Source of the DNA: Candidatus Adlerbacteria bacterium
GTDB lineage: Bacteria > Patescibacteriota > Minisyncoccia > Phycocordibacterales > SBAW01
Assembly (NCBI GenBank): GCA_903824155.1
Contig: CAIJVL010000035.1
Location: 1 to 47,887, forward strand
Reading direction: 5' to 3'
DNA: 47,887 nucleotides
Part shown: positions 9,469 through 29,853 of the stretch, one piece after another
How positions within the stretch are numbered: position 1 is the stretch's first letter
How the letters are laid out: every line of letters begins with the position of its first letter
Program-made: the position numbers and the translations under genes
The notes under the pieces: generated by a model
Told to the model about the DNA's origin: nothing
The model's input: the letters and a program-made list of their open reading frames with translations, nothing else
The model's database searches: none

Positions 9469-9536
9469 TGTAATGGTTTACCCCTGTTTTTCCTTTGGGG
9501 TTACGATTCTGACGGTTCCCCATAGGGGCCTATCAG

Positions 9537-9557
9537 AAAAAAGGAGCCTTGTGAGGC
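9537..9557 (-). promoter_or_regulatory. Small hairpin plus U tract next to the predicted start in the rpsN operon leader
   Basis: The minus strand reads GCCU-CACA-AGGC-UCC-UUUUUU, starting 2 nt after the predicted +1. Confidence 0.3.
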
Positions 9558-9565
9558 GTAGAGGG

Positions 9566-9594
9566 ATACTACCACAGCCATTTGGAGAGCGCAA
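9566..9594 (-). promoter_or_regulatory. Sigma70-like promoter of the rpsN-...-secY sub-operon
   Basis: The minus strand reads TTGCGC-17 nt-TAGTAT, about 90 nt upstream of the rpsN ATG. Confidence 0.5.
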
Positions 9595-9654
9595 ACTTCC
9601 CGACTTCATGTAGATAAAGGGGTTGACTGGCCTAGGGTTTTTGTCCTCTCCTTA

Positions 9655-9683
9655 TTGACATGCAACCATTTTCAGGTTAAACT
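9655..9683 (+). promoter_or_regulatory. Sigma70-like promoter of the island-1 plus-strand gene
   Basis: TTGACA-17 nt-TAAACT, divergent from the rpsN promoter. Confidence 0.5.
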
Positions 9684-9728
9684 CGTATAGGAATAAGGAT
9701 AGCCCTGAAACAAAGACGGAGTAGACCA

Positions 9729-9983
9729 TTGTCCCCTGAGGAAAACCAGAATACCCCTCCTCTCCCCCCAGGCTTTGCCTACGGAGAGGATCTCAGCCTG
9801 AAAGAGTTAGCCATTGAAGCCATCGTGAGTGGCCTCAGAGCTACTCTCACAGAAACTCTGAAGGAAAACGAAACAATTCCGCCAGATGCTGAGCTCAGAC
9901 GCATGGCTGAAACGCAGTATGCCAAGTCGATCAAGAATGGTCTCGACGACCATCTTGGTACCGGCGTACTCCCCAAAAACTAG
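9729..9983 (+). CDS. Hypothetical protein (84 aa)
   Basis: The TTG start is 7 nt after GGAG. It has its own promoter and ends 17 nt before terminator/repeat copy A. Confidence 0.4.
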   Translation: MSPEENQNTPPLPPGFAYGEDLSLKELAIEAIVSGLRATLTETLKENETIPPDAELRRMAETQYAKSIKNGLDDHLGTGVLPKN

Positions 9984-10000
9984 TCCTTTCGTTCAAAATC

Positions 10001-10049
10001 AAAAACCCGCGCCATTCACTTGGTCGCGGGTTTTTTCTTTTCTATTTTT
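10001..10049. repeat. Direct repeat copy A (also a bidirectional terminator hairpin)
   Basis: AAAAACCCGCGCCATTCACTTGGTCGCGGGTTTTTTCTTTTCTATTTTT is near-identical to 11243-11291. Confidence 0.85.
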
Positions 10050-10095
10050 GAAATTCGTATACACTGGCAGCAGACAAATCCTTGGAGTAGTACAA

Positions 10096-10386
10096 ATGAA
10101 ATGTGATTACATGTTGCCAAGAGCCGAACATCCGCTTGTGGCATGGGAAGAGCCTTTACCCTCTTGTTTGCTCGAAGAGGGACATGAGGACTATCATCTC
10201 ATCCTTACGAGCAGCGGGTGGTACCTATTTTATCCCTACACAGAGTCGTGTGGGGATGACTGCGAGTGTGCCCAAGACACCGACTGTACCAACTACGAAT
10301 GCTTTACTTGGTGCAAAATATCCAACGCCGAAGCGCAGCAGTTGCTCAATCCGCTGAAAGCCAAAAAACCAAAACGGAGCCCCTAA
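10096..10386 (+). CDS. Hypothetical Cys-rich protein (96 aa, 8 Cys)
   Basis: ATG 10096 lies in the frame of ORF 9886..10386, 8 nt after GGAG. The C-terminal half contains SCGDDCECAQDTDCTNYECFTWC. A terminator overlaps the stop. Confidence 0.45.
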   Translation: MKCDYMLPRAEHPLVAWEEPLPSCLLEEGHEDYHLILTSSGWYLFYPYTESCGDDCECAQDTDCTNYECFTWCKISNAEAQQLLNPLKAKKPKRSP

Positions 10387-10400
10387 AGGCTCCGTTTTTT
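10373..10400 (+). terminator. Rho-independent terminator
   Basis: AACGGAGCC-CCTAAA-GGCTCCGTT followed by TTTT. Confidence 0.7.
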
Positions 10401-10461
10401 CTATATTAAATTTCGATTCAGCAGAATCGCCTACTGGGTTATTTTTTGAAGGGCGGGTTGC

Positions 10462-10494
10462 AAAAAAGAAAACCGGCTGCTTGTAAGCGGCCGG
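10462..10494 (-). terminator. Rho-independent terminator after the two-gene membrane operon
   Basis: A 10-bp stem CCGGCCGCTT/AAGCAGCCGG is followed by UUUUCUUUUUU on the minus strand. Confidence 0.6.
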
Positions 10495-28377: not shown

Positions 28378-28444
28378 GTGTGACCTCTCTAGTTGAATGT
28401 TTGAAGAACGCTGCCAAAGAGCCTAGTCGGTTAGCGCACGGGTG

Positions 28445-28738
28445 TCAATAAAATATAAAACAGCCCCTTGGGGCTGTTTTGATAATGGGCGGAAAGTGCG
28501 GCGGCGGCTCTTGGTCAAGCACTTCGTACAGTTTAGCGAGAACGAGCTGCCCCATCTCGATGAACTTCATATCGGAACTGGAAGCGACCAATGATTCGAC
28601 CTGGCGGATCATTTCCCACACGAGCGATTGCGAGTAACGGCAACCGCCCACCGTCAGAAAGGGGCGCGCTCTTTTCCACCGGTAAAGCAAATCGAGCGTT
28701 TCTTCAAATCGGCTGCACTTGCGGCGATGCTCGCTCAT
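28445..28738 (-). CDS. Hypothetical protein (97 aa)
   Basis: ATG is 2-3 nt after AGGAGGGAG. The terminator hairpin (28457-28480) overlaps the last codons. Confidence 0.45.
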   Translation of the reverse strand: MSEHRRKCSRFEETLDLLYRWKRARPFLTVGGCRYSQSLVWEMIRQVESLVASSSDMKFIEMGQLVLAKLYEVLDQEPPPHFPPIIKTAPRGCFIFY

Positions 28739-28783
28739 GACTCCCTCCTAGTGAGAACTCTGCCCCGACTATAGCAAATGTTA

Positions 28784-28817
28784 CAAAAAATAAAACAGCG
28801 CCGAGAATGGCGCTGTT
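28784..28817 (-). terminator. Rho-independent terminator closing the hairpin-dense region
   Basis: AACAGCGCC-AUUCUC-GGCGCUGUU-UUAUUUUUU on the minus strand. Confidence 0.7.
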
Positions 28818-29146
28818 ACAAGTCGGGGGACCGGTCCCCAAGTATGGGGGTTTGGTTGGCGTAACCCTTTTGTCTGCATGGCAGACACAGCTCCAGTACG
28901 GAGCATAACGGATGTGCACTCGATGTACACGTAGCACGTGTAGGGCGATAAGCTCTCCTGTTTGGAGTGTGAGACACGATAGAAGGAATCGGAGTCCGAT
29001 GCCTCTCATTGTTTTCTCCCTAGCTAAATAACAAAAGAACGTCCCAGCTAATATAGCAGGCTCCAAAAACCGCACAAGCGGGTTGTGCACTAGTAAAAAG
29101 TAAAGTATGTGGTACTGTCGCTTCAGATCAGAAATGGAGAGAAGTC

Positions 29147-29410
29147 ATGACCCCGCGAGAAATCTTACAAAAGATGCTTGGGTGGATTGCCGAAGAGAAA
29201 AGAAAATCGACTCAGCCCGGCGGTGATCCGTTTGAGTATATGAGCCTCACGTACTGTGCATCGGAAGTTGGTGCAGGAGAGCAGCTTGGCGAGGTAGTAA
29301 AGCTTTTACAAAAATCCGTAAAAGCCGAACCTCCTTGCATGCCCTTCGATGCAATGAGGCACAATCGTGCAATCTTCCTCATCAACCGCACTCTTGCCAC
29401 ATCGGCATGA
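29147..29410 (+). CDS. Hypothetical protein (87 aa)
   Basis: ATG is 6 nt after GGAGAG. A terminator starts at the stop codon. Confidence 0.45.
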   Translation: MTPREILQKMLGWIAEEKRKSTQPGGDPFEYMSLTYCASEVGAGEQLGEVVKLLQKSVKAEPPCMPFDAMRHNRAIFLINRTLATSA

Positions 29411-29446
29411 AAAAAGGCGCCCCACAAAGGCGCCTTTCTTTTTTAT
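29410..29446. terminator. Bidirectional terminator
   Basis: AAAAAAGGCGCC-CCACAAA-GGCGCCTTTCTTTTTT. Confidence 0.8.
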
Positions 29447-29456
29447 TTAATTTGAG

Positions 29457-29486
29457 ATTACCAAGCGAAGTGGGCGAAGGCTTTGT
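29457..29486. repeat. Direct repeat copy 1 (duplicated rpsG 3' end)
   Basis: ATTACCAAGCGAAGTGGGCGAAGGCTTTGT matches 29824-29853 at 29 of 30 positions. Confidence 0.9.
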
Positions 29487-29760
29487 AGATAGCAAACACG
29501 AGAGACGTAAGTATAAAACTAATAATCACACATACTATCAGATCAAATATCCTGACTAGCCAAGGATTTTGATACCAAAATCCTGCAGATGGCTGGAAAC
29601 TCTGCTCGAGCAAACCTACGGGTAACGTTATCTTCGTGTAGATGAAGTTATAATTTTCTATTATCTTTTCAGCAACCGCAGGCAGAAATATTGGTAGCTC
29701 AACTATTAAAAAATAAATAATTCCCACAATAAAACTCCAAATGTAAAATGAGCGGCTCAT
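29458..29760 (-). CDS. Hypothetical membrane protein (100 aa) whose last 8 residues are a copy of the S7 C-terminus
   Basis: It has three hydrophobic segments and ends ...[10 protein letters not shown], against S7 ...[10 protein letters not shown]. The body is low-GC: about 36% by hand count over 29521-29760. Confidence 0.5.
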   Translation of the reverse strand: MSRSFYIWSFIVGIIYFLIVELPIFLPAVAEKIIENYNFIYTKITLPVGLLEQSFQPSAGFWYQNPWLVRIFDLIVCVIISFILTSLVFAIYKAFAHFAW

Positions 29761-29778
29761 AACTCTAGACTATCATGC

Positions 29779-29802
29779 AAAATCGCCCCTAGGGGCGATT
29801 TT
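29779..29802 (-). terminator. Rho-independent terminator after rpsG
   Basis: AAAATCGCCCCTAGGGGCGATTTT. Confidence 0.75.
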
Positions 29803-29823
29803 GTGTAAACAAATTTGTTTTAA

Positions 29824-29853
29824 ATTACCAAGCGAAGTGGGCAAAGGCTTTGT
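29824..29853. repeat. Direct repeat copy 2 (native rpsG 3' end)
   Basis: ATTACCAAGCGAAGTGGGCAAAGGCTTTGT. Confidence 0.9.

Follow-up and report, generated by a model that had tools for sequence, protein, structure and literature searches.

The str-S10-spc ribosomal supercluster is a textbook case of gene order frozen by selection, and the locus described here raises the question of how such a cluster can keep its order while five of its internal junctions stand open by a kilobase or more. The window, by which we mean the whole 47,887-nucleotide stretch analysed, is the entire contig CAIJVL010000035.1 (C35) of a 0.82-Mb metagenome-bin genome of Candidatus Adlerbacteria that comprises 69 contigs, is 95% complete and has a GC content of 51.5%. 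Its S10 protein finds its closest named relatives in metagenome bins that carry the labels Candidatus Adlerbacteria, Kaiserbacteria, Nomurabacteria, Taylorbacteria and Paceibacterota, and the source genome is accordingly placed in the Candidate Phyla Radiation (CPR), as a member of the Parcubacteria/Paceibacteria type.

A canonical gene order with five widened junctions

The gene order was checked with an open reading frame (ORF) map, with NCBIfam and Pfam family searches and by synteny with relatives. In agreement with a preliminary description of this DNA, the family matches and the synteny establish the canonical order of the supercluster from rpsL to map on the minus strand, namely rpsL, rpsG, fusA, tuf, rpsJ, rplC, rplD, rplW, rplB, rpsS, rplV, rpsC, rplP, rpmC, rpsQ, rplN, rplX, rplE, rpsN (type Z), rpsH, rplF, rplR, rpsE, rplO, secY, adk and map. 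The uL30 gene is not present in the cluster, which is typical of CPR. The spacing of a few to tens of bases within operons is departed from at five junctions of 1.1-3.1 kb, all of which fall within str, S10 and spc operons of the E. coli type and stand at exactly the positions first reported. Island 1 separates rpsG from fusA (26700-29824, 3125 bp), island 2 fusA from tuf (21938-24548, 2611 bp), island 3 rpsJ from rplC (19197-20273, 1077 bp), island 4 rplB from rpsS (14853-16569, 1717 bp) and island 5 rplE from rpsN (9469-11296, 1828 bp).

When the locus was aligned junction by junction with the closest genomes, as had been proposed, the relatives proved to be open at the same five junctions with largely different contents. 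In the closest comparison, which comprised 11 genomes of the same genus or order, the block order is the same and the gaps at the same junctions are of very different size, ranging from 49 bp to 1.2 kb at rpsG/fusA, from 0.8 kb to 10.1 kb at fusA/tuf, from 44 bp to 2.4 kb at rpsJ/rplC, from 104 bp to 3.0 kb at rplB/rpsS and from 62 bp to 1.25 kb at rplE/rpsN. We then measured all 26 junctions from S12 to map in 92 loci, made up of 80 S10-centred loci from named genomes, the 11 relatives and the window. Gaps of more than 400 nt were found in 25 out of 44 loci at S7/fusA (median 482 nt), in 60 of the 67 at fusA/tuf (median 1925 nt), in 42/82 at S10/L3 (median 419 nt), in 38/58 at L2/S19 (median 867 nt) and in half of those available at L5/S14 (13/26, median 442 nt). 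At 20 other junctions the medians do not exceed 155 nt and gaps above 400 nt occur in 0-4 loci each. The remaining junction, secY/adk, was reached by six loci alone, in which it is wide in 4/6 with a median of 597 nt, and it may be a sixth, minor slot. Among the well-sampled junctions the wide ones are thus the five of the window only. The operon boundaries of E. coli, tuf/rpsJ and rpsQ/rplN, are tight in these loci (the tuf/S10 median is 74 nt in 90 loci), and so are all the internal junctions of the rpsS-rplE block in relatives.

To define the phylogenetic depth of the breaks, evenly drawn genome samples were searched with a fused S10+L3+L2+S19 query. The rplB/rpsS junction exceeded 400 nt or was separated in 21 out of 33 families of the window's order, compared with about one in 33 other families of the class and with 0/35 genomes from the other classes of the phylum. 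The rplB/rpsS break is consequently characteristic of the window's order, in several families of which rpsS is found 11-44 kb away from rplB or on a different contig. The rpsJ/rplC break is scattered more widely over the phylum, being open in about 9/35 families of the order, in 3/35 other families of the class and in about 12/36 genomes of other classes. For the window alone, the split cluster is therefore ordinary in its clade. The preliminary description had seen in the islands an unusual, repeated invasion of this genome, and this is not supported, since openness at the same junctions extends over the entire order, some of the island genes are a common inheritance of the genus and the islands of the window contain no mobile-element gene. 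Its suggestion of tolerated insertion hot spots holds, given that the same five junctions are expanded in the 92 loci with mostly unrelated contents.

We consider it probable that the str-S10-spc cluster of this order consists of autonomous units whose permissive boundaries act as cargo slots, and the best reading of the junctions is that they are ancient sub-operon boundaries that tolerate cargo. According to this model the supercluster would have been reorganised in the order into at least six self-contained units (rpsL-rpsG, fusA, tuf-rpsJ, rplC-rplB, rpsS-rplE and rpsN-secY-adk-map), each closing with a strong intrinsic terminator and opening with its own putative promoter of the sigma-70 type and a short leader, in which a GC hairpin often precedes a U-tract. 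DNA inserted between such units would not be polar on essential genes, and it is for this reason that the five junctions would be selectively permissive. The boundaries would become long-lived slots in which genes are gained, are duplicated, diverge and are lost. The islands of the window would then mix genus-level residents, i.e. glmM, a peptidoglycan-binding surface protein and antisense small genes in rplB/rpsS and rpsG/fusA, with lineage-specific orphans that would include a local four-fold tandem expansion of the rplB/rpsS antisense gene.

A chimeric contig, in which the islands would be mis-joins between ribosomal gene fragments of different populations, had been named at the outset as a danger, and the origin of the genome from a metagenome bin of 69 contigs and the GC content of the islands, which is somewhat below that of the flanking genes, give it some colour. 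To address it, the same proteins were sought in other public assemblies (from two further ENA assembly accessions and a Logan run) and collinearity was compared. Scaffold_1970 of ERZ18667691 is 99.88% identical to window 14019-20559 and spans islands 4 and 3, k141_182003 of ERZ27313591 is 99.9% identical to 19147-37041 and spans islands 3, 2 and 1, and a contig of Logan ERR4197940 is 100% identical to 26523-30029, which includes island 1. For island 5, scaffold_2130 of ERZ18667691 matches window 7633-14073 in two blocks of 100% and 99.97% identity, with a 100-N scaffold gap at window 10791-11064, inside the island, as a further point in favour of an artefact. The independent assemblies carry a few substitutions relative to the window, and because of these they are not copies of the same contig. 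Other accessions and assemblers thus give a 99.9-100% identical, collinear sequence over every island border, and relatives have the same block order, gaps at the same junctions and resident genes in common. This rules out a chimeric contig for practical purposes, and we regard an assembly artefact as extremely improbable.

Terminators, promoter-like sites and leaders at the block boundaries

Six blocks, all on the minus strand, are delimited by the islands. Block 1 holds rpsL (30332-30760), identified by Pfam Ribosom_S12_S23 on the identical gene in an independent assembly (L124), and rpsG (29825-30295; NCBIfam rpsG_bact, 197 bits). Block 2 is fusA alone (24549-26699; TIGR00484 EF-G, 1051.6 bits), and block 3 combines tuf (20744-21937) with rpsJ (20274-20576/20657) across a tight junction without terminator. 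Block 4 runs from rplC through rplD and rplW to rplB (16570-19196), as identified by family searches and by Pfam on the identical genes in L122, and block 5 comprises rpsS, rplV, rpsC, rplP, rpmC, rpsQ, rplN, rplX and rplE (11297-14852; family searches, and Pfam in L122 and L126). Block 6 (3832-9468; family searches) contains rpsN, rpsH, rplF, rplR, rpsE, rplO, secY, a 77-aa ORF, adk and map.

Each upstream block has a strong hairpin and U-tract directly after its stop codon, as judged by folding against shuffled sequences, so that the hairpin/T-run terminators ascribed to the gaps in the preliminary description are confirmed. The folding energies are -19.6 kcal/mol for rpsG (z -5.4), -23.4 kcal/mol for fusA (z -5.1), -25.6 kcal/mol for rpsJ (z -7.3), -21.0 kcal/mol for rplB (z -4.7) and -23.4 kcal/mol for rplE (z -6.0). 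The tight tuf/rpsJ junction has no strong hairpin (fold z -1.3). In two scans of the window the terminator-like sites exceeded those of shuffles (31 vs 16.2 and 23 vs 12.6).

Support for promoters was sought by conservation across relatives. In the window, promoter-like sites precede rpsL (30796-30824, TTGACA-17-TACATT), fusA (26738-26765), tuf (22042-22069, TTGCAC-16-TACTAT), rplC (19306-19334, with a conserved GTCCC...GGGAC leader hairpin), rpsS (14950-14978, TTGCGT-17-TACTAT, followed by a leader hairpin and U-tract at 14928-14940) and rpsN (9566-9594, TTGCGC-17-TAGTAT). Genus alignments place a -35 box TTGCNN or TTGACN, a spacer of 16-18 nt and a -10 box TANNNT in register before rpsS, rpsN, tuf, fusA and rpsL, and conserved leaders with hairpins in register come after the aligned boxes. 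We searched the 92 loci for TTGNNN-16..18-TANNNT within 160 nt upstream of each start codon. The fraction of loci with the motif was 0.95 for S12, 0.79 for S19, 0.77 for S14, 0.64 for fusA, 0.51 for L3 and 0.48 for tuf, all of them genes that come first in a block, compared with 0.00-0.26 for internal genes, 0.15-0.24 for shuffles and 0.02-0.21 for the reverse complement. A perfect GC hairpin followed by a U-tract no more than 60 nt from the -10 box was present in 58% of the motif-bearing S12 loci, in 42% of the S19 loci and in 18-22% of the S14, tuf and fusA loci, and in at most 1% of shuffled leaders. This element may attenuate transcription, may stabilise the mRNA as a 5' hairpin with a U-rich standby site, or may do both. 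A new sigma70-like promoter had been proposed for each downstream block. The conserved motif upstream of fusA, tuf, rplC, rpsS and rpsN upholds this proposal, which a consensus scan restricted to the window does not. The division into at least six transcription units that had been deduced is plausible as a prediction based on the terminators after the upstream blocks and on the conserved promoter-like motifs.

Between the rpsN promoter-like site and the start codon (9469-9594) lies a leader of about 95 nt that is highly conserved in the genus (G009, G006, G076 and G085). It has a small hairpin and a U-tract, followed by two stems with apparently compensatory changes, and matches no Rfam family.

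Contents of the islands and their turnover

Island 1 starts with the rpsG terminator (29778-29803) and a 100-aa membrane ORF (29458-29760, minus strand) that ends in a duplicated rpsG 3' end. A bidirectional terminator (29413-29437) separates this ORF from an antisense, conserved 87-aa gene (29147-29410, plus strand), which has homologues at the same junction. Next come a 97-aa ORF (28445-28738, minus strand), a terminator (28457-28480) and a promoter-like site (28420-28448) upstream of glmM (27028-28377, minus strand), which is followed by a terminator (26982-27005) and by a 59-aa ORF (26776-26955, minus strand). The ORFs of this island were likewise called by public gene callers in an independent assembly. 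The glmM gene is a full-length equivalog (TIGR01455, 567.3 bits for a cut-off of 447.55) in which Pfam finds the PGM_PMM domains I-IV, and its translation displays the TASHNP, DGDADR and GEQSGH loops, which we take to be the catalytic loops of GlmM.

In island 2, the fusA terminator (24504-24531) is followed on the minus strand by a 122-aa ORF (23611-23979), a hairpin (23529-23550), a 70-aa ORF (23247-23459) and a 345-aa ORF (22081-23118) with a PG_binding_1 domain by Pfam and a 72-nt tandem repeat. This tandem duplication (22303-22446, 92% identity) encodes a repeated MGSSTMMGSTTLPMPPRHDDFHP motif that sits in the low-complexity C-terminal half of the protein. Island 3 has the rpsJ terminator (20229-20264), a 134-aa membrane ORF (19779-20183) and a 104-aa ORF (19372-19686), both on the minus strand, the latter with a weak homologue at the same junction in G006.

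Island 4 carries four antisense small genes on the plus strand, at 16263-16517, 15916-16149, 15496-15816 and 15087-15362. Each of them ends in a similar bidirectional hairpin terminator (16529-16552, 16165-16191, 15824-15852 and 15381-15408, respectively), the first of which also terminates rplB, and the same four ORFs were called in independent assemblies. Their sequences suggest that they are probably, though not certainly, paralogues that arose by local tandem expansion; the pairwise similarity is weak (with E values near 1e-5 when the search space is tiny and of 0.06 against six-frame ORFs), and position, size and orientation are in common. Island 5 contains a doubtful 164-aa membrane ORF (10674-11168, minus strand), a Cys-rich 96-aa ORF (10096-10386, plus strand) with a terminator at 10371-10398, and an antisense 84-aa gene (9729-9983, plus strand). 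Gene calls in an independent assembly include the 96-aa and 84-aa ORFs.

We scored these ORFs with a dicodon measure trained on the rest of the genome, on which known genes reach about 0.4-0.66 and shadow ORFs average -0.33. Convincing scores of 0.36-0.45 were obtained for glmM, for the 345-, 122-, 104- and 59-aa ORFs, for the antisense 84-aa gene and for the antisense gene at 16263-16517, and intermediate scores of 0.26-0.28 for the 134- and 70-aa ORFs. The three ORFs of island 2 scored 0.44, 0.40 and 0.26. Weak scores of 0.05-0.14 were given by the 100-, 97-, 87-, 164- and 96-aa ORFs, several of which are still conserved elsewhere or called by public gene callers. A Pfam search of the 20 island ORFs other than glmM returned a single match, the weak PG_binding_1 domain of the 345-aa ORF, and no recombinase, transposase or other mobile-element gene. 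Scans of the window for tRNAs and Rfam families found neither. The preliminary description had recognised glmM and nothing else in the islands; the TIGR01455 match bears it out for glmM, and the PG_binding_1 domain is one more recognisable element.

In the wider sample, 196 gaps held 448 non-overlapping ORFs of at least 60 aa, of which 364 (81%) were without a relative in the other gaps at E<1e-6. The 177 gap ORFs of at least 150 aa from named loci were searched with Pfam. PG_binding_1 was found in 13 of them and PKD, DUF3298 and TIG a few times each, the other matches being unrelated singles (alanine racemase, EF-Ts, glycosyltransferases, a type II secretion ATPase, PIN/PhoH and others), and there was one DDE transposase. 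Predicted membrane and signal-like segments are not enriched in the islands (0.49/0.37, compared with 0.48/0.33 in the genome). These junctions have the properties of hot spots, with universal ribosomal flanks and many different accessory families across genomes, and the insertions are concentrated, as five of the 26 junctions take nearly all of them and secY/adk is also wide in its six-locus sample.

Against this turnover, a few residents persist. The glmM gene occurs in 5 out of 41 genomes of the genus, in all five between rpsG and fusA, with identities of 39-63%. One of these copies (L114, G044:C4:36779-37726), at rpsG/fusA in a congener, is truncated with two in-frame TGA stops and is probably a decaying pseudogene of the resident of the same slot. 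Because all five carriers have it in the same slot, because the identities are so spread and because one copy has stops, glmM is an old, decaying resident of the rpsG/fusA slot and not a recent arrival. Orthologues of the antisense gene at 15087-15362 are found in six genomes (G006, G024, G076, G077, G078 and G085), with 43-59% identity, antisense and at the same rplB/rpsS junction, of which they are the sole occupant in G078 and G085. The antisense 87-aa gene recurs in rpsG/fusA of G024, G050 and an Adlerbacteria bin, and PG-binding ORFs stand at fusA/tuf in G006, G010, G024 and G085, 21 of the 28 members of their cluster (c0) being at this junction. A database search with the rplB/rpsS small protein gave a self-match only, and one with the 87-aa protein gave four unannotated relatives. 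The 87-aa family was modelled as a four-helix bundle (pLDDT 78) for which a fold search found no PDB match. In the model of the rplB/rpsS small-protein family, the N-terminal 50 residues form a beta-beta-alpha domain (pLDDT 81-89) weakly like T7 Gp2 and epsilon/YkzG, which bind RNA polymerase (Foldseek probability 0.98 and 0.90, with E 0.2-0.5, not significant), a modelled likeness that can serve as a lead only.

Entry of DNA into the slots and competing explanations

Two islands of the window contain a direct repeat of their upstream border. The rplE terminator with its tail (11243-11295) is copied at 10001-10053 (53 nt, 92% identity), 1242 nt downstream, and the two copies bracket a 1.24-kb segment that holds the 164-aa and 96-aa ORFs. 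The rpsG 3' end forms a 36-nt direct repeat (29451-29486 and 29818-29853, 367 nt apart), the inner copy supplying the C-terminus (...KAFAHFAW) of the low-GC 100-aa membrane ORF. Across the relatives, a direct repeat of the upstream border lies inside the island in 9 out of 163 gaps of at least 500 bp, as compared with 1/163 in a mismatched-genome control and 1/163 for inverted repeats; in G007, for instance, the end of rplB is copied over 85 nt. Repeats of this kind are the expected outcome of integration by a single crossover at short border homology, or of segmental duplication with uneven loss, the duplication-then-loss (SNAP) model discussed by Brandis (PMC8046335). They need no dedicated recombinase, and none was seen in the islands. 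We infer that recombination or duplication events in which the upstream border was copied gave rise to some of the insertions. An integron-like cassette array was considered for the islands and rejected, as they contain no recombinase, their repeats are ordinary terminator hairpins and the single tyrosine recombinase of the genome is encoded on another contig, C41.

These footprints could also indicate insertion by a machinery that is site-specific or targets hairpins, with the terminators or the 3' ends of particular ribosomal genes as its recognition sites, comparable to integron cassettes or to elements that integrate in gene 3' ends with a copy of the target. Both the 36-nt and the 53-nt repeats of the window and the excess over the two controls would fit such targeting, as would island 4, which is an array of gene-plus-hairpin modules. 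However, about 95% of the gaps lack a border repeat, and where one exists it is equally expected from a single crossover or from duplication-loss (SNAP model, PMC8046335). The repeated hairpins are 8-12-bp GC stems with U-tracts, not attC-like, no recombinase or transposase is found in the window's islands, the lone tyrosine recombinase is elsewhere, and a transposase accounts for 1/177 of the larger gap ORFs in relatives. We therefore hold targeted insertion to be quite unlikely, and we infer that permissiveness, rather than targeting, explains the hot spots. The island genes might instead stay beside the translation genes since they benefit from or regulate ribosomal gene expression, for instance if the antisense small genes acted on neighbouring promoters or on the transcription/translation machinery. 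The conservation of the rplB/rpsS antisense gene in place and orientation in 7 genomes of the genus, the retention of the antisense 87-aa gene in rpsG/fusA, the PG-binding ORFs at fusA/tuf in many genomes and the weak Gp2/epsilon likeness of the modelled rplB/rpsS N-terminus speak for this possibility. Yet 81% of the gap ORFs are singletons, the Pfam content covers unrelated functions, the islands are bracketed by terminators, no structural match is significant, the propensity for membrane or secreted proteins is that of the genome background and the residents are wholly missing from many genomes. Functional co-location is accordingly very unlikely, and the gain of function from proximity to translation genes that had been offered as the other explanation of the islands has no support, as the contents are heterogeneous, are insulated by terminators and show no enrichment in membrane or secreted proteins over the whole genome. 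A combined version, in which slots made of a terminator and of a promoter with its 5' hairpin-U-tract leader would be filled by border-duplicating recombination and some residents would regulate their neighbours, so that the whole would be a functional module system and not tolerated clutter, also appears unlikely to us; its candidate regulators would be the antisense small genes, one of them with a Gp2/epsilon-like modelled fold.

Several points weigh against the interpretation of the five junctions as permissive boundaries between autonomous units. The separate transcription of the units is a prediction alone, made from the sequence, and a plain consensus promoter scan of the window gave no more sites than expected by chance (6 vs 8.4 and 7 vs 9.1). 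The hairpin and U-tract elements may be leaky or regulated. The 80 named loci were selected on the similarity of their S10 and truncated at +/-10 kb, and are neither unbiased nor phylogenetically independent, so that the counts describe the clade and are not independent trials, and the gap sizes, taken between the ends of tblastn alignments, are slightly too large. Finally, permissiveness alone does not explain why L2/S19 is tight in about one third of the families of the order.

The phenomenon can be compared with two known cases. In Gammaproteobacteria and Bacilli, Brandis (2021, PMC8046335) described small gene invasions at operon-operon junctions of the cluster, followed by full separation, with 65% of the events at operon-operon junctions and the operons left intact. 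As there, the order of the translation-gene cluster is kept here while a few genes invade junctions; later full separation is likewise seen, with rpsS far from rplB or on another contig in several families, and the leftover duplicated borders fit the duplication-loss (SNAP) or recombination proposed by that author. In contrast to that study, the canonical junctions tuf/rpsJ and rpsQ/rplN are tight and the open ones fall within the str, S10 and spc operons of the E. coli type. Insertion that leaves operons intact is thus not what is found when the E. coli operon map is used, but it would be found if the lineage's own predicted units were taken instead. The slots are moreover fixed and common to an order, with high turnover and with transposable elements almost absent. 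Oliveira, Touchon, Cury and Rocha (2017, PMC5635113) found accessory genes concentrated in few core-gene intervals, often without mobile elements, and defined these hot spots within species pan-genomes, tying them to homologous recombination at the flanks. The islands resemble them in occupying a small fraction of core intervals, in their rapid turnover and in that many lack recognisable mobile elements. They differ in that the comparison here spans species, genera and families with one genome per species, and in that the slots are inside the most conserved cluster of the genome. What distinguishes the present system from both cases is that the open junctions fall within the classical operons, that the same five are used across an order and that these have conserved terminator and promoter-leader boundaries.

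In gene content and order the cluster matches the canonical str, S10 and spc operons of E. coli and B. subtilis, save for the CPR-typical absence of uL30. The predicted units differ in that fusA forms a unit by itself, the S10 operon is interrupted behind rpsJ and again behind rplB, the spc operon is interrupted behind rplE and rpsJ goes with tuf, an association also known from archaea and cyanobacteria. In the library searched we found no paper describing interruptions of the CPR ribosomal cluster, and Tsurumaki 2022 and Vanni 2022 do not address them. The clade-level phenomenon is a new variation on known hot-spot and operon-invasion behaviour. A whole CPR order breaks the supercluster at the same five internal points and then uses these as cargo sites with fast turnover, and the constraint therefore appears to act on the integrity of transcription units and not on adjacency. 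The slots offer natural 'safe harbour' positions, together with promoter, leader and terminator parts, for organisms that have not yet been cultured or engineered. They also call for caution, as CPR contigs with ribosomal proteins that are used for phylogeny or binning carry variable, possibly transferred, cargo.

A few further features were observed in and around the cluster. In two genomes of one other family of the phylum, rpsS lies upstream of rplB (G094:C101:27559-30599 and G121:C23:12971-15985), apparently between rplW and rplB, as a local rearrangement of the S10 operon. The 77-aa ORF between secY and adk in the window (5219-5452, minus strand) gave no match in Pfam and has a coding score of 0.38. 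Directly after map, at the distal end of the cluster, lies a nucleoside diphosphate kinase gene (3201-3794, minus strand), a 197-aa ORF whose NDK domain corresponds to residues 100-185 and is thus preceded by an N-terminal extension.

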